From Escherichia phage vB_EcoM_E9, in sequence record PP886229: 64,000 nt of DNA; one strand, written 5' to 3'. Positions within the stretch are counted from its first letter, which is position 1; the number at the start of each line of letters is the position of its first letter. Below the pieces are notes generated by a model that saw nothing but the letters and a program-made list of their open reading frames with translations, made no database searches and had not been told where the DNA came from. Made by a program: the position numbers and the translations under genes. This document shows positions 6,316 through 16,376 of the stretch, in pieces.

Positions 6316-7448
6316 TATGCCTCCCCTGTTGGGTTAACTGTAACTGTTGCCGCATTAGATGTTACAGAGCCACCTGCACCAGTTACTACACAAGTGTAAG
6401 AACCTGCATCAGCAGCAGTTGCACCTTCTTTGGTGTAAGTTGCAGCAGTTGCGTCTGGGATGACTTCCTCACCTTTCTTCCACTGGTAACCTGTTGCACC
6501 AGTTGCCACAACATTCAGCGTTAAGGTCTCACCTTCAGTGATTTCTTGATTTGCTGGCTGTTGAGTGATTACAGGAAGAGCATTCACAGTAACTGTCGCT
6601 GCATTAGATGTGACTGAACCACCTGCACCAGTTACAACACAAGTGTAAGAACCTGCATCTGCTGGAAGCGCACCAGTCTTGCTATAGGTAGCATTTGTAG
6701 CTGAAGGGATGTTAGAGCCATCTTTCTTCCACTGGTAACCTGTTGCACCTATTGCAGTCACTTCCAAGTTGATGTTTCCACCCTCATTAATGGTCTGACT
6801 AGAAGGTTGCTTGGTAATCACTGGTAGTGCATTAACAGTAACTGTTGCCGCATCTGAAGTAACACTTGTTCCAGCCTCTCCAGACACAACACAAGTGTAT
6901 GAACCAGCATCAGAAGGTGCTACGGATTGTTTTGTGTAAGTTGCAGAGGTAGCACTGGAGATGTCCTCACCACCCTTCTTCCACTGATATCCAGTGGCGT
7001 TAGTTGCAATAACACTTAGGGTAAGTGTTCCACCCTCATTGACCGTTTGGTTTGTTGGTTGTTGAGTAATTGCTGGTGGCTTAATAGCATCCTTCAGCTT
7101 AGCATTCAACATTGAGAAAGGTTTAACTCTTGCCAGCCATTCACAGTAAATTGTGTCAACATCTTTACCGTTGATGATTGCATACTGTAAATCCATGAAG
7201 AAATCAGCAGTCCTCATCTGTGCACCAACACTGTAAAGGAGTTCATCACTAAAAGGGACTTTGTAGTCTGGTTTGTAGTCAAACTTCTCAACCTCTGCGA
7301 TATCAGCTTCAGGCCAATATGAACTATAGGTAAGTGGTAAAATAGCCTCTTGATATGTTCTAAAATCATATCTCTTACCAGCCTTTACATTTGCAATGAA
7401 GCCCTTTACAAATTCTTTGAAGTCTGGATAAGTCTTTGCTTTAATCAT
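6315..7448 (-). CDS. Ig-like domain protein (three tandem Ig-like repeats) with N-terminal domain paralogous to the next gene
   Basis: 377 aa; three ~80 aa repeats each ending ATGYQWKKG...DAGSYTCVV...ATVTV; DNA shows three ~250 bp tandem repeats. Confidence 0.7.
   Translation of the reverse strand: MIKAKTYPDFKEFVKGFIANVKAGKRYDFRTYQEAILPLTYSSYWPEADIAEVEKFDYKPDYKVPFSDELLYSVGAQMRTADFFMDLQYAIINGKDVDTIYCEWLARVKPFSMLNAKLKDAIKPPAITQQPTNQTVNEGGTLTLSVIATNATGYQWKKGGEDISSATSATYTKQSVAPSDAGSYTCVVSGEAGTSVTSDAATVTVNALPVITKQPSSQTINEGGNINLEVTAIGATGYQWKKDGSNIPSATNATYSKTGALPADAGSYTCVVTGAGGSVTSNAATVTVNALPVITQQPANQEITEGETLTLNVVATGATGYQWKKGEEVIPDATAATYTKEGATAADAGSYTCVVTGAGGSVTSNAATVTVNPTGEA
6330..7060. repeat. 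Three tandem ~250 bp coding repeats encoding the Ig-like domains
   Basis: Near-identical stretches such as CCACTGGTAACCTGTTGCACC recur at ~6480, ~6725 and ~6975. Confidence 0.7.
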
Positions 7449-9526: not shown

Positions 9527-10942
9527 ATGAGCGAATTATTTAAACATGCGCACCTTCATGTAGGTCGAACTGAAAATGGTGCTGTAAACCATACTTCATC
9601 AATGTCTGCTCTTGTGGACTTTTACAAAGCTGCTGGTTCCAGCCGTAGTAATGTAGAAATCTTACCAGACTTGTTCTACAAAGCTTTGCGTGAGGATGTT
9701 GATGTTGCAGTTCGTATTTTACTGCATATGCGAGATGTACGAGAAGGTATGGGTGAGCGTAAAGCTTTCCGAACTGTTTTACTTCAAGCGATTGAAGATA
9801 AAGTTTTAGAGCCTACACAGGTTCTTCGCATTATGGATAAGATTGCAGAACTTGGTCGTTTTGATGACTTCAAAATCTTCGTAGGTACTCGTTTTGAGAC
9901 AGATGCCTTCAAACATTTAGAAGCAGCATTACTAGACCCTGCAACATCAGGTTTAGCGGCTAAGTGGTTACCACGAGTAAAACCACGCCACAAACAGTTT
10001 GTAAAACGTTTCTGTAAGTTTGCAAACTTAAGTGAGAAGGAGTATCGCACACTGTTATCTGCACTGTCTGATACGGTTGAGCAAAAAATCTCTGCTAATG
10101 AGTTTGGTAAGATTGACTACAGCAAGATTCCTTCACTCGCTGCTGCACGTTACCAAAAGCTCTTTAACCGTAAAGATGGGGAACGTTACAAAGCTTACAT
10201 TGAGTCCTTATCAAAAGGTGAGGCTAAGATTAACGCTGGTGCTGTTTACCCATACGATGTGATTAAATCTATCAAGTATGGTAATGCAGATGTTGCTAAT
10301 GAGCAGTGGAAAGCACTACCAAACTGGATGGCAGAAGGTGAGAACATCTTGTGTATGACTGATGTTTCAAGCTCAATGTCTTGGGTGAATATTGGTTCAA
10401 TCACTGCCCTTGATATTGGTGTATCACTTGCTTTGTATGTAGCAGAACGCAACACTGGTTGCTTTAAGAATGAGTTAATGGTTTACTCAACAAACCCTCA
10501 CTTCATCGAACTGAGTGGTGATTTACGAAACCGTCATCGTCAGGTAATGCGTCATGTTGAATATGGTTCAACTAACTTACAAGCAGCTTTTGACCGTATT
10601 CTTGAGGTAGGTAAGCGAAACAACTTGACTCAGAAAGATATGCCAAGTAAGCTTATTATCTTCTCCGATATGGAGTTCAATCAGGTTGATGGAGCTAACG
10701 GTCGTACAAACTTTGAAGCAATTCAGAGTAAGTACAAAAAAGCTGGATACGAAATGCCACAACTAGTATTCTGGTACTTAGCAAACCGTAATGGTACTTG
10801 CGAAGTATCTGTTAAGGATAATGGTGTAGCGATGGTATCAGGGTTCTCTCCAGCCACTTTAAAAGCTCTGCTTGGTGGTGAGAAGTTTGACCCAATCAGC
10901 GTAATGCTCAAAGCAGTAATGATTGACCGTTACATCTGGTAA
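9527..10942 (+). CDS. von Willebrand factor A (vWA) domain protein with large N-terminal domain (TROVE/DUF2828-like suspected)
   Basis: 471 aa; MIDAS-like DxSxS motif (CMTDVSSSMSW) in the C-terminal half. Confidence 0.55.
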   Translation: MSELFKHAHLHVGRTENGAVNHTSSMSALVDFYKAAGSSRSNVEILPDLFYKALREDVDVAVRILLHMRDVREGMGERKAFRTVLLQAIEDKVLEPTQVLRIMDKIAELGRFDDFKIFVGTRFETDAFKHLEAALLDPATSGLAAKWLPRVKPRHKQFVKRFCKFANLSEKEYRTLLSALSDTVEQKISANEFGKIDYSKIPSLAAARYQKLFNRKDGERYKAYIESLSKGEAKINAGAVYPYDVIKSIKYGNADVANEQWKALPNWMAEGENILCMTDVSSSMSWVNIGSITALDIGVSLALYVAERNTGCFKNELMVYSTNPHFIELSGDLRNRHRQVMRHVEYGSTNLQAAFDRILEVGKRNNLTQKDMPSKLIIFSDMEFNQVDGANGRTNFEAIQSKYKKAGYEMPQLVFWYLANRNGTCEVSVKDNGVAMVSGFSPATLKALLGGEKFDPISVMLKAVMIDRYIW

Positions 10943-10961
10943 AAAAGTTTTAAAAAGGGTA

Positions 10962-10990
10962 TTGACAATGTGTTTGATACCCTTTAATAT
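10962..10990 (+). promoter_or_regulatory. Sigma70-like promoter TTGACA-N17-TAATAT upstream of the tRNA array
   Basis: Exact -35 hexamer, 17-nt spacer, -10 TAATAT; -35 sits inside inverted repeat GGGTAT/ATACCC. Confidence 0.5.
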
Positions 10991-11108
10991 GTTCTACATA
11001 GAAACGAAATGAGAGCTTTTCTAAGATACTGAAAAATATTTTAAAAAAGTTCTTGACAACCACTAAAAAATAATGTTAAAGTGGTTACATAGAGTTTGAA
11101 AAGTTTAT

Positions 11109-11185
11109 CTCTGTTTAGCTCAGCTTGGTAGAGCGTTCCGTTTGGGGCGGTAAGGCCGGAGGTTCAAGTCCTCCAACAGAGACCA
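11109..11185 (+). tRNA. tRNA-Pro (anticodon TGG)
   Basis: 7-bp acceptor CTCTGTT/AACAGAG, D-arm GCTC..GAGC, T-arm GGAGG-TTCAAGT-CCTCC, 3' CCA. Confidence 0.7.
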
Positions 11186-11192
11186 AATTAAT

Positions 11193-11270
11193 GTTCCAGT
11201 AGACAAAATGGTAAAGTCACCACTCTTTCAAAGTGGATATTTGAGGGTTCAAATCCCTTCTGGAACGCCA
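11193..11270 (+). tRNA. tRNA-Glu (anticodon TTC)
   Basis: Acceptor GTTCCAG/CTGGAAC, anticodon stem CCACT/AGTGG, T-loop TTCAAAT, CCA. Confidence 0.7.
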
Positions 11271-11277
11271 GTTTTGA

Positions 11278-11350
11278 CAGAAGACCAATTGCAGCAAACT
11301 TAATCTTATTCATCTGACACGAAATCGGACAAAGAAGAGATTTGGTCTGG
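11278..11350 (+). ncRNA. Stem-bounded tRNA-sized element, copy a (CAGAAG-AGACCAA ... TTGGTCT-GG)
   Basis: 7-bp terminal stem 11282-11288/11342-11348; conserved CAGAAG leader and CAGCAA box; no T-loop consensus. Confidence 0.4.
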
Positions 11351-11361
11351 TCATTAAGAAT

Positions 11362-11438
11362 TGCGGGTATAGAGAAAGGGCGTCTCACATGTCTCATTAG
11401 CATGGTATCGGCAGGTTCGACTCCTGCACCCGCCTCCA
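11362..11438 (+). tRNA. tRNA-Met-like (anticodon CAT), mismatched 1:72 pair
   Basis: Anticodon stem CATGT/GCATG, T-arm GCAGG-TTCGACT-CCTGC, CCA. Confidence 0.55.
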
Positions 11439-11444
11439 AATTTA

Positions 11445-11508
11445 CAGAAGACCGTTTACAGCAATATTTATTAAATTTTTAGCGGAAAAATTGAAAGATA
11501 CGGTCTGG
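11445..11508 (+). ncRNA. Stem-bounded element, copy b (CAGAAG-AGACCGT ... ACGGTCT-GG)
   Basis: 7-bp terminal stem with compensatory changes relative to copies a and c. Confidence 0.4.
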
Positions 11509-11521
11509 TAATACTAAACAT

Positions 11522-11598
11522 GGTTAGGAAGCACATAAGGTATGTGCGGTCGCCTGTTAAGCGAATGGCACAGGGTTCGAATCCCTGACTAACCGCCA
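11522..11598 (+). tRNA. tRNA-Asn (anticodon GTT)
   Basis: D-arm GCAC..GTGC, T-arm CAGGG-TTCGAAT-CCCTG, CCA. Confidence 0.65.
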
Positions 11599-11607
11599 AA
11601 TTTAAAT

Positions 11608-11695
11608 GTGTCGTTATCCCGTAGATGGTAGCGGTGGGGACTGTAAATCCCTTGTCATTGAGACTCGGTAGGTTCGACTCCTACACGGCACACCA
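11608..11695 (+). tRNA. tRNA-Tyr (anticodon GTA), long variable arm
   Basis: Acceptor GTGTCGT/ACGGCAC, anticodon stem GGGGA/TCCCT, T-arm GTAGG-TTCGACT-CCTAC, 88 nt. Confidence 0.7.
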
Positions 11696-11701
11696 AATAA
11701 A

Positions 11702-11779
11702 GGTTATGTAGTTTAATCTGGTTAAAATACTCCCCTGTCACGGGAGATGATGTGAGTTCAAGTCTCATCGTAACCGCCA
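11702..11779 (+). tRNA. tRNA-Asp (anticodon GTC)
   Basis: Acceptor GGTTATG/CGTAACC, anticodon stem CTCCC/GGGAG, CCA. Confidence 0.7.
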
Positions 11780-11866
11780 AATTATAATAAGTATTTCAAG
11801 ATGATGTTTTGAGAGGGCTATTTAGCCCCTCCCTTAAAGAGTTCTTACGAGTATTCTTTAAAGGAG

Positions 11867-11940
11867 CAGAAGACCAAATTCAGCAAGTTACTTAAAATTT
11901 CAAGCCAATTTAATTTTGAAAAATTTAAAACTTGGTCTGG
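11867..11940 (+). ncRNA. Stem-bounded element, copy c (CAGAAG-AGACCAA ... TTGGTCT-GG)
   Basis: 7-bp terminal stem 11871-11877/11932-11938. Confidence 0.4.
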
Positions 11941-11953
11941 CTCAAAAATTTTA

Positions 11954-12085
11954 CAGAAGACCGTTTACAGCAAAACTTAAACAATCTATTTCTCCGGTAA
12001 AGAAAAGGCGAAGGTTCGATTCCTTCACTCGGCAGATGTCGAGTTGGTGTAATGGTAGCACTTAAGATGATAAACAACGGTCTGG
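11954..12085 (+). ncRNA. Stem-bounded element, copy d, enclosing tRNA halves in permuted order
   Basis: 8-bp terminal stem AGACCGTT/AACGGTCT (11958-11965/12076-12083); contains a T-arm and a D-arm in reversed order. Confidence 0.4.
11989..12061 (+). tRNA. Candidate circularly permuted tRNA (anticodon GGT, Thr-like): 3' half 11989-12034 precedes 5' half 12038-12061
   Basis: 3' half has anticodon arm TTTCT-CCGGTAA-AGAAA, T-arm GAAGG-TTCGATT-CCTTC, acceptor ACTCGGC; 5' half has acceptor GTCGAGT (7 bp with one G-U) and D-arm GTGT-AATGGTA-GCAC. Confidence 0.35.
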
Positions 12086-12086
12086 T

Positions 12087-12230
12087 AATTATCTTTGTAG
12101 ATAAGTTATTAAGCTTACCTGTGAGTATGCGACCACAAAGGGTGAAAGGGCAAATTCTAGATTTAAACCCAACAAGGCACATCGCTACAGACCTTAAGCA
12201 AGTCTGGGTAGCTTATCTACAAAGATAATT
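12087..12230. repeat. 19-bp perfect inverted repeat AATTATCTTTGTAGATAAG (12087-12105 / 12212-12230) flanking ~106 bp
   Basis: Arms are exact reverse complements. Confidence 0.6.
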
Positions 12231-12234
12231 TAAT

Positions 12235-12310
12235 GGAAGTGTAGCAGAATGGTGATGCGGCAGACTTTTAATCTGACAGGCGATGGGTTCGAATCCCTCC
12301 ACTTCTACCA
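12235..12310 (+). tRNA. tRNA-Lys (anticodon TTT)
   Basis: Acceptor GGAAGTG/CACTTCT, loop CTTTTAA, T-loop TTCGAAT, CCA. Confidence 0.6.
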
Positions 12311-12314
12311 ATAT

Positions 12315-12391
12315 GGTTCAGTCGCAGATAAGGTAATGCAGGGGTCTCATAAGCCCTATGAATGTGGGTTCGATTCCCATCTGAACCTCCA
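12315..12391 (+). tRNA. tRNA-Met or tRNA-Ile2 (anticodon CAT)
   Basis: Perfect acceptor GGTTCAG/CTGAACC, loop CTCATAA, CCA. Confidence 0.7.
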
Positions 12392-12392
12392 A

Positions 12393-12468
12393 GCTGGTAT
12401 AGTTAAGAAGGTTATAACACTCCCCTGATAAGGGAACATCGGTGGTTCGATTCCACCTACCAGTACCA
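12393..12468 (+). tRNA. tRNA-Ile (anticodon GAT)
   Basis: T-arm GGTGG-TTCGATT-CCACC, loop CTGATAA, CCA. Confidence 0.65.
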
Positions 12469-12483
12469 ATTTCAATAAAGTTG

Positions 12484-12512
12484 TTGACATTGAGATGTGA
12501 CTACTTTATAGT
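12484..12512 (+). promoter_or_regulatory. Sigma70-like promoter TTGACA-N17-TATAGT inside the tRNA array
   Basis: Exact -35 at 12484-12489 and -10 TATAGT at 12507-12512 with 17-nt spacer. Confidence 0.55.
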
Positions 12513-12805
12513 AACTGAAAATAATTCAGCATATGTATAATTCAAACACCAATACATGAGCGTTAGACGTAACACAATGTGGGGAAATTTGTTGTACATA
12601 TTCTGAATAGTTTTCGTTGCGTAGCGTCTATTTTGCAAATTTAAAATAAATGCAAACGACAATGTTTTTCTGGCAGTAGCTTGATAGGCTAAACACCAGT
12701 GAGGTCTTCCAATCCCTCATCAAAGAATTTGGCGTACTAGCCCACGGTATGATTAATAAGGTGGGCATCTTTAAGGGCTTTCTAAGAGAGTCTTTAAAGA
12801 TTAAT

Positions 12806-12882
12806 GCACCCTTAGTTCAATTGGATAGAGCAACGGTCTTCTAAATCGTTAGTTACAGGTTCGAATCCTGTAGGGTGTGCCA
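12806..12882 (+). tRNA. tRNA-Arg (anticodon TCT)
   Basis: D-arm AGTTCAATTGGATAGAGC, loop CTTCTAA, T-loop TTCGAAT, CCA. Confidence 0.7.
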
Positions 12883-13024
12883 AATAGTTAGCAGATTGCT
12901 TAGACGACCTTATCGGGTCTCCGTGTAAGGAGGTGGTCTGTATCTCATGTTTTCCAGAACATGTAAATAATCTGAGAAGGGGCTTTACAGTGTTGCGAAA
13001 ATACGGTAAGCTTCGAATTACAGT

Positions 13025-13107
13025 ATGGGACGATGTTAAGACTCTAAGGCATGAGCAACGGCCTCCAAAACCGTTTCAAAGGGGTTCAACTCCTCCGTCC
13101 CATGCCA
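13025..13107 (+). tRNA. Atypical tRNA-like sequence, anticodon unassigned
   Basis: Acceptor ATGGGAC/GTCCCAT plus T-loop-like GGGGTTCAACTCC and CCA, but no clean D-arm or 7-nt anticodon loop. Confidence 0.3.
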
Positions 13108-13120
13108 AAGTCTTATTAGG

Positions 13121-13208
13121 GGTAGGTAGCGGCTAATGGCAGCCAAACAGTCTTGAAAACTGTTGCCACTGTAGAGATACGGTGAGGGTTCGACTCCTTT
13201 ACTTACCG
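13121..13208 (+). tRNA. tRNA-Ser (anticodon TGA), long variable arm
   Basis: Anticodon stem ACAGT/ACTGT, loop CTTGAAA, long variable arm, T-loop TTCGACT; no encoded CCA. Confidence 0.6.
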
Positions 13209-13364
13209 CCTAATAAGATTTACACCGTCCATGCTTGCTCGCATTTTCGGTTTATCCCTCGTGTATTGTCGTACACTGATAAAGCACCTAGCAGGTGTCA
13301 CGGAGAAGAGATAATATCAAGCTCTCCAAAGGTTCTAGTCACCGGATTAAACAAGACTATGCAA

Positions 13365-13384
13365 AGACCTATTTAGGTCTTTTT
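13365..13384 (+). terminator. Rho-independent terminator AAGACCT-ATTT-AGGTCTT followed by TTTTT
   Basis: 7-bp stem plus T-run, inside the tRNA array. Confidence 0.6.
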
Positions 13385-13463
13385 AGAGGGCTTCTAAGGT
13401 TATTACAGCTTGTTGTGGAACCTTGTTGCTTAGGTTCTTAGAAGTTCTCTAAAAAGATTTAAT

Positions 13464-13541
13464 GGGAGATTGACGGTAATTGGTAAACCTACCATCCTTA
13501 GAAGTTGGTGTTTGAGGGTTCGAATCCCTTGTCTCCTACCA
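13464..13541 (+). tRNA. tRNA with apparent anticodon TAG (Leu-type) but short variable arm; identity uncertain
   Basis: Acceptor GGGAGAT/GTCTCCT, T-arm GAGGG-TTCGAAT-CCCTT, CCA; 78 nt. Confidence 0.5.
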
Positions 13542-13548
13542 AATTAAT

Positions 13549-13624
13549 GCAGGTGTAGCAAAATGGTTATGCGGCTGACTCTTAATCAGTAAGACGATGG
13601 GTTCAATTCCCTCCACCTGTACCA
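13549..13624 (+). tRNA. tRNA-Lys (anticodon CTT)
   Basis: Anticodon stem GCTGA/TCAGT, loop CTCTTAA, CCA. Confidence 0.65.
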
Positions 13625-13630
13625 AACAAT

Positions 13631-13706
13631 GGGGTCATAGTTTATATGGTTAAAATTCTAGTTTTGCAAACTTGGGAACTGAGTTCAATTCTCAGTGACT
13701 CCACCA
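13631..13706 (+). tRNA. tRNA-Ala (anticodon TGC)
   Basis: Acceptor GGGGTCA/TGACTCC with the G3:U70 wobble typical of tRNA-Ala; CCA. Confidence 0.75.
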
Positions 13707-13712
13707 ATTAGT

Positions 13713-13787
13713 GCATCCATAGTTTAAACGGGAAAATTACAGTCTTCCAAACTGAGGTTGAGGGTTCGATTCCCTCTGGATGCTCCA
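13713..13787 (+). tRNA. tRNA-Gly (anticodon TCC)
   Basis: Perfect acceptor GCATCCA/TGGATGC, loop CTTCCAA, CCA. Confidence 0.7.
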
Positions 13788-13794
13788 AATTAAT

Positions 13795-13870
13795 GCTCCT
13801 ATCGTATAATTGGCTATTACGGTTGCCTTGTAAGCAACTTATCAGGGTTCGAATCCTTGTGGGAGCACCA
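13795..13870 (+). tRNA. tRNA-Thr (anticodon TGT)
   Basis: Anticodon stem GTTGC/GCAAC, loop CTTGTAA, T-loop TTCGAAT, CCA. Confidence 0.7.
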
Positions 13871-13874
13871 ATTT

Positions 13875-13961
13875 AGAGGTCAAGTGAAAGACCGCTTTGA
13901 GTCAACTGAAGACCGTAACAAATTCCACGGAGTTGAGTTAGCGGCACAACTTCAGACCTCT
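13875..13961 (+). ncRNA. Stem-bounded ~87 nt non-tRNA element (AGAGGTC ... GACCTCT) containing GAAGACC motifs
   Basis: 7-bp terminal inverted repeat 13875-13881/13955-13961; no T-loop consensus. Confidence 0.3.
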
Positions 13962-13966
13962 TTAAT

Positions 13967-14041
13967 ACTCGCTTAGTTTATATGGTAAAACACCACCCTT
14001 ACAAGATGAAGAAAAAGGTTCAAGTCCTTTAGTGAGTACCA
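13967..14041 (+). tRNA. tRNA-Val (anticodon TAC), weak anticodon stem
   Basis: Acceptor ACTCGCT/AGTGAGT, D-arm GTTT..AAAC, T-arm AAAGG-TTCAAGT-CCTTT, CCA. Confidence 0.5.
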
Positions 14042-14042
14042 T

Positions 14043-14120
14043 GTTCCAGTATCCCAATTGGTAGAGGATGCAAGCTCAAACCTTGCACTAGTGACGGTTC
14101 GAATCCGTCTTGGAACACCA
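14043..14120 (+). tRNA. tRNA with anticodon CAA (Leu-type) but class I architecture; identity uncertain
   Basis: Perfect anticodon stem GCAAG/CTTGC, loop CTCAAAC, T-arm GACGG-TTCGAAT-CCGTC, CCA. Confidence 0.55.
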
Positions 14121-14125
14121 ATTTT

Positions 14126-14201
14126 GCAGGATTAGTTCAAATGGATAGAGCAACAGTCTACGAAGCTGTTAATAGGGGTTCGAATCCCTTATCCTGCACC
14201 A
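14126..14201 (+). tRNA. tRNA-Arg (anticodon ACG)
   Basis: Perfect acceptor GCAGGAT/ATCCTGC, loop CTACGAA, CCA. Confidence 0.7.
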
Positions 14202-14219
14202 ATTAAGTAAGAGGGATTT

Positions 14220-14462
14220 ATGCAAACATTAATAGTCGTTGAACATGAAAATTCCAATAGCATTGAGTTTGTAAGGGTTCCCACTATAGATACCCACATT
14301 TTCTTGAAAGTCGGCTGGGGATGCGACCCAATAAGAGTAGAAAAATTTATTGGTCATTGCTTTGGTGGAAGACAACTTAAAAGTGTCAATTTTGAGACAA
14401 TGCTACCAGAAAACTCAGAAACAAATAATAATGCTTACCTCCTTACGAGGATTAGACAATGA
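14220..14462 (+). CDS. hypothetical protein embedded in the tRNA array
   Basis: 80 aa ORF in a tRNA-free gap, stop overlaps the next ORF start. Confidence 0.4.
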   Translation: MQTLIVVEHENSNSIEFVRVPTIDTHIFLKVGWGCDPIRVEKFIGHCFGGRQLKSVNFETMLPENSETNNNAYLLTRIRQ

Positions 14463-15016
14463 GATACTTAAAATATGTTTCATGGATTTTCTTAGCTTTG
14501 TTAGAGCCATTTGCAGCAATCTTAGCAGTTATCTTAGCACCTTTTGTAGTTCCATTTTACAGTGAGAAGAAAGGACACTTACCTTTCGGATTTAGATGGA
14601 TGGAAACTTATGACAACCCGATTGATGGTGATGAAGGTCATGTCAAACGATGGGCTAAGATTAGAAAGATTGGTAAGCTTGGTGTCTATTTACAGAGAGT
14701 TGGATGGCTCTGGAGAAACAAAGCTTATAACTTCTCTTACCATGTGTTAGGAAGAGATGTAAAAGATGTTACTAAGTGGAAAGGTAATATCAACGTAAGC
14801 TCTGACCCTGAAGATAATCAGACAGGTTATCTCCTAATGTGGAACAGTAATGCTTGGGGATTATTCGCTTTTATCCCATCAATTAAAGTCTTTGGTAAAC
14901 AATTCTACTGGAGAATTTATGTTGGATGGAAACTTAAAAGTGTTGTCCCAGAAGAAAGAGCATTCTCAAGGGAAAGAGTTATGTTGGCATTCTTTATTCA
15001 TCCACTAAGAAAGTAA
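14459..15016 (+). CDS. putative membrane protein embedded in the tRNA array
   Basis: 185 aa; N-terminal hydrophobic helix (WIFLALLEPFAAILAVILAPFVVPF). Confidence 0.5.
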   Translation: MRYLKYVSWIFLALLEPFAAILAVILAPFVVPFYSEKKGHLPFGFRWMETYDNPIDGDEGHVKRWAKIRKIGKLGVYLQRVGWLWRNKAYNFSYHVLGRDVKDVTKWKGNINVSSDPEDNQTGYLLMWNSNAWGLFAFIPSIKVFGKQFYWRIYVGWKLKSVVPEERAFSRERVMLAFFIHPLRK

Positions 15017-15024
15017 AGATTTAA

Positions 15025-15100
15025 AGGGGATTAGTTTACAAGGTTAAAACCTCGGTCTTTGAAATCGAAGAAGTTGGTTCAATTCCAACATCCCCCGCCA
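15025..15100 (+). tRNA. tRNA-Gln (anticodon TTG)
   Basis: Anticodon stem TCGGT/ATCGA, loop CTTTGAA, T-arm GTTGG-TTCAATT-CCAAC, mismatched 1:72 pair. Confidence 0.6.
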
Positions 15101-15102
15101 AT

Positions 15103-15181
15103 GCTCCATTACTCCAATTGGCAGAGAGGCCAGACTTAAAATCTGTGTTATGTATCGGTTCGAATCCGATATGGAGTACCA
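15103..15181 (+). tRNA. tRNA with anticodon TAA (Leu-type) but no long variable arm; identity uncertain
   Basis: Acceptor GCTCCAT/ATGGAGT, loop CTTAAAA, T-arm ATCGG-TTCGAAT-CCGAT, CCA. Confidence 0.5.
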
Positions 15182-15186
15182 AATTT

Positions 15187-15262
15187 AGCGGTATAGCATA
15201 ACTGGCAATGCAGCAGTCTCTGAAGCTGTCTTATTAAGGTTCAAATCCTTATGCCGCTGCCA
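15187..15262 (+). tRNA. tRNA-Gln (anticodon CTG)
   Basis: Anticodon stem GCAGT/GCTGT, loop CTCTGAA, T-arm TAAGG-TTCAAAT-CCTTA, CCA. Confidence 0.6.
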
Positions 15263-15293
15263 CTTCTAAGGGTTCTTACGAGAGTCCTTAAAT

Positions 15294-15369
15294 GTGGCCT
15301 TATCATAAATGGTAATGACCCATGCTGTGAACATGGTCTATACGGGTTCAAATCCCGTAGGTCACCCCA
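15294..15369 (+). tRNA. tRNA-His (anticodon GTG)
   Basis: Perfect anticodon stem CCATG/CATGG, loop CTGTGAA, CCA. Confidence 0.65.
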
Positions 15370-15375
15370 ATTTAT

Positions 15376-15451
15376 AGTCCAAGTAGCTTATATGGTTAAA
15401 GCGCGTGTCTGAAAAACATGAGAAGAGGGTTCAAATCCCACTGGACTACCA
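15376..15451 (+). tRNA. tRNA-Phe (anticodon GAA)
   Basis: Loop CTGAAAA, T-loop TTCAAAT, acceptor 3' strand CTGGACT, CCA; overlaps the GTG start proposed by the ORF track. Confidence 0.55.
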
Positions 15452-15467
15452 ATTTCAAAGGTGCTTA

Positions 15468-16202
15468 ATGAAAGAGATGACAGAACAAGGTAAGGAGATT
15501 TTTAATCTCTTAAAAACCGGTAGAGGGTTTTCTAACCCCCTTATTACTGGTGCAGCAGTTCTCGGTGGAACCGTAGCTGCCTCTACATCACTTGTAAGCT
15601 CTATTAGCTCTGTAACAGACCCTACAATAAAGGATAAGCTTGTTGCTGCTGGGCTTACAACAGTTCTGCTTAATAGCTTTACAACGAGTCTGACAAGCAC
15701 TACATCAACTACTAAGACACTGACAGATTACGGTCAAAAGTCCATTGATGAGTTTTCATCACGTATGCAGGTAGCAAAAGGATATTCCAATGTTATGGGT
15801 GCAGCAGGAGAGCAAGTCGGTTGTACGCCATTTAGTGGTATTATGGGTGTTGCTACAGAATATGGTCAAAAAGCTATTGACACGATTAACAACACGTTAG
15901 ACAGTGTTAATGATGTATTAAGTGACTTACAAGATGCTATTGATAAAGGTCTTGATACTGTTTCTGATTTAGCTAACCAAGCTGTTAGCAAGATTAATGA
16001 AGGTATCTCGAAGATTACAGCTTATGCAGATGAAGTTGTGCAGATGATTGAAGAAGAAGCTGCCCTTATTGCAGAGTACCTTAAAACGAATATCAATGGG
16101 TTCTTAGCAGGTATCTTACCAGACTGGTTTGACGATGCTTGTAAAACTGGTGTGATTGACACTATTGCAACACAAGAAATGAAGAACGCATTACAGAAAT
16201 AA
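15468..16202 (+). CDS. hypothetical Ser/Thr-rich protein with N-terminal hydrophobic segment
   Basis: ORF track 15405..16202 starts at a GTG inside tRNA-Phe; in-frame ATG at 15468 (MKEMTEQ) clears the tRNA. Confidence 0.5.
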   Translation: MKEMTEQGKEIFNLLKTGRGFSNPLITGAAVLGGTVAASTSLVSSISSVTDPTIKDKLVAAGLTTVLLNSFTTSLTSTTSTTKTLTDYGQKSIDEFSSRMQVAKGYSNVMGAAGEQVGCTPFSGIMGVATEYGQKAIDTINNTLDSVNDVLSDLQDAIDKGLDTVSDLANQAVSKINEGISKITAYADEVVQMIEEEAALIAEYLKTNINGFLAGILPDWFDDACKTGVIDTIATQEMKNALQK

Positions 16203-16203
16203 T

Positions 16204-16296
16204 GGAAGATTAACCCTAAAAGGTAAGGGAGCAGTTTGCTAAACTGCCAGTAGCTGAGAAATCGGTGTACCAGTTCAAGTCTGGTATCTTCCTCCA
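16204..16296 (+). tRNA. tRNA-Ser (anticodon GCT), long variable arm
   Basis: Perfect anticodon stem GCAGT/ACTGC, loop TTGCTAA, T-arm ACCAG-TTCAAGT-CTGGT, CCA; 93 nt. Confidence 0.65.
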
Positions 16297-16300
16297 ATTT

Positions 16301-16376
16301 GAATCCGTGACAGAAATGGCTATGTGCCTGTCTGCAAAACAGGTTTATAAGGGTTCGAGTCCCTTCGGATTCTCCA
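16301..16376 (+). tRNA. tRNA-Cys (anticodon GCA)
   Basis: Perfect acceptor GAATCCG/CGGATTC, anticodon stem CCTGT/ACAGG, loop CTGCAAA, CCA. Confidence 0.7.

Follow-up and report, generated by a model that had tools for sequence, protein, structure and literature searches.

Four structured RNAs in the tRNA array of a Felixounavirus, probable Y-RNA-like partners of a phage Ro60-like protein

In RYPER complexes, a Y RNA tethers Ro60 to PNPase. Chen et al. 2014 (PMC4201824) described YrlA RNAs beside TROVE-annotated Ro60 in 254 bacteria and 22 phages. The parts of YrlA follow the order motif, V, T, AS (acceptor-like), D; its gene shares a strand with Ro60 and lies no more than 4 kb from it, and several Y RNAs are found per species (PMC4201824). 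In Mycobacterium smegmatis, YrlA is cleaved by RNase P and carries CCA in vivo (PMC4201824). Ro60 of Thermus phage phiLo binds two adjacent Yrl RNAs via a stem-bulge with CGAA and, together with these RNAs, binds host PNPase and attenuates it (PMC12135203). Phage Bas63 encodes gp130, structurally Ro60-like, which counters the Ppl defence (2024 PhageMaP preprint, PMC11482910); the authors only guessed that some annotated Bas63 tRNAs might be Y RNAs, and located none (PMC11482910). Described here are four RNA elements, copies a to d, lying in the tRNA array of Escherichia phage vB_EcoM_E9 (record PP886229), together with the Ro60-like gene upstream of them. The window, numbered from its first letter, is the whole stretch of 64,000 nucleotides (nt) analysed. 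It belongs to a Felixounavirus (Felix O1-like myovirus); positions 11000–12500 are 99% identical to Escherichia phage ECOH1 and are matched by about 300 phage records.

Copies a to d are read as Y-RNA-like partners of the phage Ro60-like protein, with a probability of roughly 0.78. The reading draws on covarying structure, a YrlA-type tRNA mimic in copy d, a predicted Ro60 fold nearby and close same-strand linkage of RNA and gene across diverse phages. By analogy with established Ro60–Y RNA systems, the copies would be expressed and bound by the Ro60-like protein; confidence in any specific downstream function is much lower than in the partnership. The gene and the four elements are listed below (P1, outer terminal helix; P2, inner terminal helix).

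9527–10942, plus strand: gene of the Ro60-like protein, 471 amino acids; predicted TROVE-type helical ring and vWA domain; orthologue of bas63_0130 (gp130).
11275–11353, plus strand: copy a, short Y-like candidate RNA; P1 UGAC/GUCA; AGA versus G loop; P2 AGACCAA/UUGGUCU; box UUGCAGCAA.
11442–11511, plus strand: copy b, short Y-like candidate RNA; P1 UUAC/GUAA; AGA versus G loop; P2 AGACCGU/ACGGUCU; box UUACAGCAA.
11864–11943, plus strand: copy c, short Y-like candidate RNA; P1 GAGC/GCUC; AGA versus G loop; P2 AGACCAA/UUGGUCU; box AUUCAGCAA.
11951–12088, plus strand: copy d, YrlA-like candidate RNA; P1 11951–54/12085–88; AGA 11955–57 versus G 12084; P2 11958–64/12077–83; CAGCAA 11968–73.

The copies are located where an earlier note on this DNA had put them (11278–11350, 11445–11508, 11867–11940, 11954–12085), and the CAGCAA box and the compensatory AA:TT or GT:AC stem positions are as described there. 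The motif AGAAGACC occurs exactly at plus-strand positions 11279, 11446, 11868 and 11955, with five other occurrences on either strand in the 64 kb. Its correctly spaced partners are the four GGTCTGG motifs at plus-strand positions 11344, 11502, 11934 and 12079; in the whole window GGTCTGG is found 15 times, against 4.15 expected by chance. P1, a 4-bp helix not in the earlier note, is revealed by folding and covaries between copies: UGAC/GUCA in a, UUAC/GUAA in b and d, GAGC/GCUC in c. P1 is included in the element coordinates listed above. Each copy is closed by its own 5' and 3' ends, which make in order P1 (4 bp), an asymmetric internal loop (5'-AGA/3'-G), P2 (7 bp) and a single-stranded UNNCAGCAA box. 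The loop is invariant in all four window copies. P2 is AGACCAA/UUGGUCU or AGACCGU/ACGGUCU, general form AGACCNN/NNGGUCU. Interiors are variable: an internal hairpin of 5 bp with a 7-nt loop in copy a (UCUGA-CACGAAA-UCGGA, 11313–11329; stems of relatives AUUUC/GAAAU and UUUUC/GAAAA), an A/U hairpin with a GCGGA loop in copy b, a hairpin UUUCAA...UUGAAA in copy c.

Of 22 related Ounavirinae loci, all but four keep the copies in the order a-b-c-d; 47 distinct sequence variants occur. The exceptions are PMBT20, without b and c; L013, without d (numbers with L denote compared loci); L022, whose record ends after copy a; and L088, in which no d-type RNA is found by the covariance models described below. 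P1 of copy b switches from UUAC/GUAA to UUGC/GCAA in relatives. In phage Moogle, P2 reads AGGCCAA/UUGGUCU and AGACUGU/ACGGUCU; the resulting G.U pairs form on the plus strand alone, so the changes fit a plus-strand RNA. Among 12 distinct variants of P1 and P2, extracted with a pairing filter that inflates the percentage and leaves the number of pair types unaffected, 99.2% of cells are paired and 7 of 11 pairs are double-changed; slid controls reach 18–45%. The AS stem of copy d is ACUCGGC/GUCGAGU in Felix-type phages, ACCCUUC/GAAGGGU followed by G-CCA in Moogle, and ACACGU-UACG-GCGUGU, a closed tetraloop hairpin, in SUSP1. An alignment of nine d-type sequences has 99.2% of cells paired and 11 of 27 pairs double-changed, including six of the seven in the AS stem; none of 500 shuffles reaches this, and slid controls give 37–49%. 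The earlier view that the family conserves an RNA secondary structure and is not a drifting repeat of DNA is borne out by these data, and so is the covariation it expected of the stem, both P1 and P2 being kept by compensatory changes between copies and phages.

In Salmonella phage PMBT20 (L004 1006–1309), copy a and tRNA-Met lead straight to copy d; copies b and c, tRNA-Asn, tRNA-Tyr and tRNA-Asp are deleted. The deletion is ascribed to recombination between the left ends of b and d, which are identical, the repeats thus driving rearrangement of the tRNA array. The annotated tRNAs of Bas63 are ordinary tRNAs; its candidates lie in unannotated gaps and under two minus-strand 'hypothetical' coding sequences.

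Copy d contains a tRNA mimic composed of the following parts.

11989–12005, plus strand: V hairpin, 5 bp with a 7-nt loop, UUUCU-CCGGUAA-AGAAA.
12010–12026, plus strand: T arm, canonical, GAAGG-UUCGAUU-CCUUC.
12027–12044, plus strand: AS hairpin, 7 bp, ACUCGGC-AGAU-GUCGAGU.
12047–12061, plus strand: D arm, canonical, following U-G, GUGU-AAUGGUA-GCAC.

A U8-like U is present; the T loop UUCGAUU and the D loop AAUGGUA are of tRNA type. As a gene, copy d is a tRNA with its 3' part ahead of its 5' part. As an RNA, it amounts to a tRNA 'elbow' with a loop-closed acceptor stem, the remaining arm being the P2/P1 terminal helix. The architecture, a 5' region followed by V, T, AS and D, is that published for YrlA. 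The Rfam tRNA model gives a partial match to the V and T arms only, at 22 bits against a gathering threshold of 29. A lack of T- and D-loop consensus, attributed earlier to all copies, holds for a, b and c and fails for d. The tRNA-likeness noted for a and c (about 73 nt, 7-bp closing stem) is superficial, the closing stem being a Y-RNA-type bulged terminal helix and not an acceptor stem. Nor can the family be kept apart from known RNAs, as the earlier note would have it: copy d has the V-T-AS-D order of YrlA (PMC4201824), and the family adjoins a Ro60-like gene which that note overlooked.

Other identities considered for copy d are not retained. It is not a canonical tRNA, since the arms are not in the standard 5'-to-3' cloverleaf order and tRNA detectors fail. 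A permuted tRNA-Ile(GAU) broken in the anticodon loop is dropped in view of the V hairpin and of a UUAAG/CUUAA pairing that is not conserved in SUSP1 or Moogle. A permuted tRNA processed at a bulge-helix-bulge (BHB) is not supported by the termini, which pair as a 4-bp and a 7-bp helix with a 3-nt/1-nt internal loop between them; nor is an anticodon loop restored. Hairpin, hammerhead, twister and other self-cleaving ribozymes, the K-turn and the BHB motif, compared by eye with the motifs of the four elements, do not fit.

Copy d is 129, 130, 133, 134, 137 or 138 nt long among relatives. The differences are not multiples of three, so the minus-strand open reading frame (ORF) 11925–12182 cannot be conserved. 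Public records show over copies c and d either minus-strand hypothetical proteins (11925–12182; AYO145A_047, bas63_0137/0138) or an intron-containing 'tRNA-Thr-GGT' of 129 nt (ASO1B). The length variation of d and the RNA covariation argue that these are mis-annotations.

The stop of ORF 9527–10942 lies 333 nt before copy a, on the same strand. Pfam assigns DUF2828 and DUF7788 only, without a match to TROVE, and DUF2828 proteins are not TROVE-annotated; PHROG 850 is named 'RNA-binding protein'. Sequence and profile searches of the PDB with the protein return nothing, and the Ro60 likeness emerged from the fold search only. An AlphaFold2 model from 37 homologues has a predicted local distance difference test score of 87.7 and a predicted template modelling (TM) score of 0.88. 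With this model, every one of the ten best Foldseek matches in the PDB is a Ro60/TROVE structure, with E from 7e-9 to 6e-7 and TM up to 0.67; they include phiLo Ro60 (the best structural match, about 16% protein identity), Xenopus laevis Ro60 and human Ro60, and vWA domains come next. On this model the product is folded as Ro60, with a HEAT-repeat ring and a C-terminal vWA domain. It is proposed as the protein partner of the four RNAs. Orthology to bas63_0130 is backed by synteny with Bas63 (JohannRWettstein). The protein is 31–34% identical, over its full length, to mycobacteriophage 'Ro-like RNA binding protein'. The protein family is found by tblastn in 692 phage records, and DUF2828 occurs in phages of Vibrio, Aeromonas, Campylobacter, Listeria, Staphylococcus, Enterococcus, Bacillus and Mycobacterium.

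In phages with a Ro-like protein 53–63% identical (L088–L091, including Yersinia phage P778), the design is kept and the helix sequences differ. Examples are UUGU-AUA-AGACUCUG...CAGCAA...V...T...AS...D...CAGAGUCU-G-GCAA and UGC-ACA-GGACUGU...CAGCAA...ACAGUCC-A-GCA. Covariance models applied to other phages find related RNAs beside DUF2828 genes in many unrelated phages, mycobacteriophages included. Model R1, built from the d alignment, was run over 70 sources, including 65 loci picked solely for a DUF2828 protein (about 40–46% identity). It gives 44 matches at E<=1, all on the strand of the gene and most adjacent to it: 140 nt downstream in L070 (70 bits), four copies upstream in L025, within 60 nt in L085, L029, L026 and L043. 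It also matches the unannotated gap just 3' of the 'Ro-like RNA binding protein' gene in mycobacteriophages LeBron and Crossroads. Short a-type candidates (helix and ACAGCAA) are present in Listeria and Staphylococcus phages. Model R2, built from 33 matches, gives 49 matches at E<=0.01, all on the plus strand and on that of the gene, most within 300 nt of it, with 17 loci outside the model-building set. Over the 64-kb window R2 matches exactly a (39.3 bits, E 2.7e-5), b (44 bits, E 2.4e-6), c (42.1 bits, E 6.3e-6) and d (114.9 bits; 166 bits with R1). In the 33-sequence family alignment, 95.2% of cells are paired, a percentage inflated by fitting to the model, and 23 of 27 pairs are double-changed. 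An AS region of the form 7-nt 3' strand, N, CCA, short spacer, 7-nt 5' strand is found in at least seven members, including Moogle, L090, L042, L079, L025 and L091. Copy d of the window has lost CCA.

One R2 match, in a Campylobacter phage (L095 1586–1725), overlaps a pair of adjacent tRNA genes and is judged a probable tRNA-dimer false positive; conserved matches of a crude 'N4-AGA-stem...stem-G-N4' pattern scan in L036–L040 lay inside coding sequence and were discarded. The array of P778 (L089, 6600–6900) holds further T-arm-bearing non-tRNA segments, with GGGTTCGATTCCC at 6628 and 6868. Listeria phage LP-125 (L096, 4816–5461) encodes an RtcB-like RNA ligase about 1.3 kb downstream of its DUF2828 gene, an arrangement reminiscent of the rsr-yrl-rtcBA operon of bacteria.

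Several observations weigh against a Y-RNA-like partnership. The Ro60-binding motif CGAA (GNCGAAN0-1G) is absent, the window copies having (G/U)(A/G)C-AGAAG, a CGAA with an inserted A; across the wider family the internal loop is merely A-rich, A-N-A. No Y-RNA or ribozyme family matches copies a to d in Rfam scans at permissive thresholds, the missing Y-RNA match being the adverse point. Copies a to c are without a tRNA-like module. Fold energies of the single sequences improve only modestly on those of shuffles (z -1.3 to -2.4), so the support for structure is covariation and not energy. The pairing percentages of the 12 helix variants and of the 33-sequence alignment are inflated as stated, and many of the sequences compared share ancestry. 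About half of the distant DUF2828 loci give no match to R1 or R2.

The array consists of 26 tRNA genes on the plus strand (11109–16376; ARAGORN), none overlapping copies a to d; no gene is called in 11271–11361, 11439–11521 or 11780–12234, where the copies lie. Further features of the array are as follows.

10962–10990, plus strand: sigma-70-like promoter, 10 of 12 consensus matches, 5' of tRNA-Pro.
11053–11082, plus strand: sigma-70-like promoter, 10 of 12 consensus matches, 5' of tRNA-Pro.
12086–12234, plus strand: structured element of 149 nt between copy d and tRNA-Lys; closing helix of about 24 bp, AUUAUCUUUGUAGAUAAG.../...CUUAUCUACAAAGAUAAU.
12484–12805, plus strand: message RNA resembling transfer-messenger RNA (tmRNA); tag frame 12652–12687; own promoter 12484–12512, 11 of 12 matches.

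The promoters at 10962–11082 are likely the start of a transcript with tRNAs and copies a to d: the next strong plus-strand promoter is that at 12484–12512, so the copies fall within the first tRNA transcription unit. A 12-bp hairpin at 10954–10985 (plus strand; AAAGGGUAU...AUACCCUUU), directly 3' of the Ro60-like gene, overlaps the -35/-10 region of the first promoter and may be a terminator or have a regulatory role. Copies b (11446–11455) and d (11955–11964) have a 5' strand, AGAAGACCGU, that is the exact reverse complement of the tRNA-Arg(UCU) anticodon arm ACGGUCUUCU (12833–12842); equivalently, their 3' strand ACGGUCU equals the 5' side of the anticodon stem. This match may be coincidence.

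The element at 12086–12234 has a minimum free energy of -46.9 kcal/mol (z = -6.28) and matches nothing in Rfam; it is conserved in Moogle, SUSP1 and L088, where its changes are compensatory. It probably represents a further structured noncoding RNA of the tRNA array. The tmRNA-like message module reads AAAAUAAAU-GCAAACGAC... and encodes ANDNVFLAVA, then two stops; the E. coli tmRNA tag is ANDENYALAA. Conservation of the tag, with synonymous changes, extends to Moogle, SUSP1 (V to A) and L088. The tag frame has no tRNA-like domain next to it, and the tag-bearing RNA could be a decoy or orphan message module.

This tag underlies one rival reading, in which copy d supplies the tRNA-like domain of a two-piece, circularly permuted tmRNA with the tag frame at 12652–12687 and copies a to c are degenerate copies. 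ARAGORN calls such a permuted tmRNA in Moogle (L003 2141–2889, 749 nt), joining d to the ANDNVFLAVA tag; genome announcements list 'ssrA' for Moogle and Felix O1 (PMC4319497, PMC4392139); and d of Moogle has G-CCA after a 7-bp acceptor stem. The tag region itself resembles tmRNA (Rfam tmRNA 15.2 bits, tmRNA_permuted 23.6 bits) and is conserved as described, although both scores are below gathering and neither match covers d. The tag lies about 560 nt downstream of d, behind three tRNA genes and its own promoter. The G3.U70 alanine identity pair is missing, being C3-G70 in the window and A3-U70 in Moogle; d of the window is without CCA; and d has a true 4-bp D stem, unlike tmRNA. In SUSP1 the stem is closed by a UACG tetraloop, so free ends are impossible there. 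L088 keeps the tag and no d-type RNA is found there. d-type RNAs stand beside Ro-like genes in at least 20 phage loci; the four phage records with both a gene table and a d-type RNA list no adjacent tmRNA gene. The permuted tmRNA reading is very improbable on this evidence and is rejected.

It is unlikely, too, that copies a to d are mere cis-acting processing or spacer hairpins of the tRNA precursor, such as RNase entry or stop sites, with no function in trans and no link to the upstream protein. They do sit between tRNAs in one transcription unit, the element ends being 4–10 nt from tRNA ends. Most tRNA junctions of the same array, however, are without such an element, and a spacer would need neither a conserved tRNA mimic nor a conserved single-stranded CAGCAA box. 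Related RNAs directly adjoin the Ro-like gene in many loci, in LeBron and Crossroads without an adjacent annotated tRNA. Least credible is an origin as small mobile or recombinogenic DNA repeats with inverted-repeat ends, like miniature inverted-repeat transposable elements, or as decayed duplicated tRNA pseudogenes. Inverted-repeat ends with variable interiors, the loss of b through c in PMBT20 via the b and d left ends, and tRNAscan-based annotations as a 129-nt 'tRNA-Thr' or a pseudogene are in its favour. Yet a-b-c-d is fixed and syntenic in all but four of the 22 Ounavirinae loci; no copies occur elsewhere in the window or on the minus strand; target-site duplications and duplicated flanks are absent at copies a to d. 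Changes are compensatory with G.U tolerated on the plus strand only, and the T, D and AS stems persist over protein distances of 40% identity.

Under the Y-RNA-like reading, copies a to d would be transcribed with the tRNA array from the promoters at 10962–11082 and released by tRNA-processing enzymes, RNase P cutting at the 5' end of the next tRNA, RNase E and 3' exonucleases trimming back to P1. The Ro60-like ring would bind the bulged terminal helix and the CAGCAA region. The variable interiors could serve as effector or gating modules of the ring, or as tethers for partners such as PNPase, as in RYPER complexes. The tRNA-like module of copy d may stabilise the RNA, or recruit or decoy tRNA-binding factors. 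The net role might be control of host RNA decay or of RNA-targeting defence during infection, which fits the report of Bas63 gp130 countering Ppl.

A broader proposal is entertained as a doubtful possibility. DUF2828-type Ro60 and 'CAGCAA-box' RNAs might form a widespread, undescribed class of ribonucleoprotein in phages of Gram-negative, Gram-positive and mycobacterial hosts. Members with the mimic would be true circularly permuted tRNA-like genes, in which a 7-bp acceptor stem is followed by N-CCA and a spacer, cut by RNase P to two-piece, CCA-ended, possibly aminoacylatable RNAs. The ribonucleoprotein would act on tRNA or translation surveillance, perhaps in concert with the neighbouring tmRNA-like tag RNA; it might, for instance, sense or decoy defence nucleases that target tRNA. 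Copy d of the window, having lost CCA, would be derived and uncut.

Phages of the Felix O1 type are workhorses of diagnostics and therapy, and one of them, Bas63, serves as a genetic model. Systems of the proposed kind are known; placing one in these phages is new. No paper describing RNAs a to d was found in a literature search whose reach excluded the phage lists of YrlA and tmRNA-database surveys. The exact coordinates of four candidate Y RNAs make the gp130/Ppl mechanism directly testable, and the covariance models tie a conserved RNA to a family of proteins whose sole annotation is DUF2828 or 'RNA-binding protein'. Three recurring mis-annotations are corrected: the minus-strand 'hypothetical protein', the 129-nt 'tRNA-Thr' and the 749-nt 'permuted tmRNA'.

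Species 1 and 2 of the T4 tRNA cluster are small non-tRNA RNAs co-transcribed and co-processed with phage tRNAs. Copies a to d are likened to them, by description only, as small non-tRNA RNAs within a phage tRNA cluster; we know of no Ro60-like partner gene for species 1 and 2. Permuted tRNA genes of the Cyanidioschyzon merolae type and two-piece tmRNA resemble copy d, which places the 3' acceptor strand and T arm before the 5' acceptor strand and D arm, with CCA between them in some relatives. Copy d differs in having no bulge-helix-bulge, restorable anticodon loop, G3.U70 or contiguous tag frame, and the SUSP1 'acceptor' is a closed tetraloop hairpin. The phiLo system of Ro60 with Yrl1 and Yrl2 (PMC12135203; PDB 9KOP, 9L5Y) is alike in its phage-encoded Ro60 adjoining short stem-bulge-stem RNAs; unlike the RNAs here, the phiLo Yrls are CGAA-defined and have no reported tRNA-like module.

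YrlA and YrlB, the RNAs bound by bacterial Ro60 (Rsr) in Salmonella, M. smegmatis and mycobacteriophages (PMC4201824), are alike in proximity to Ro60, the same strand, several RNAs per locus and a terminal module that the two ends of the RNA form together. Copy a is 333 nt from the ORF with the predicted Ro60 fold, all copies are on the plus strand, and the end stem of P1, loop and P2 is present in all four. The tRNA-like domain in V-T-AS-D order is found in copy d alone, and the 7-bp AS and N-CCA of CCA-bearing relatives are like those of M. smegmatis YrlA. Unlike YrlA and YrlB, the window RNAs have an AGA/G (A-N-A/G) loop between two covarying helices and a UNNCAGCAA box, with no CGAA; the predicted partner is of the DUF2828/DUF7788 clade, and the RNAs are embedded in a tRNA array. 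The AGA/G loop and the CAGCAA box in place of CGAA, together with a DUF2828-clade partner, thus mark a variant set apart from the classical Y-RNA systems.

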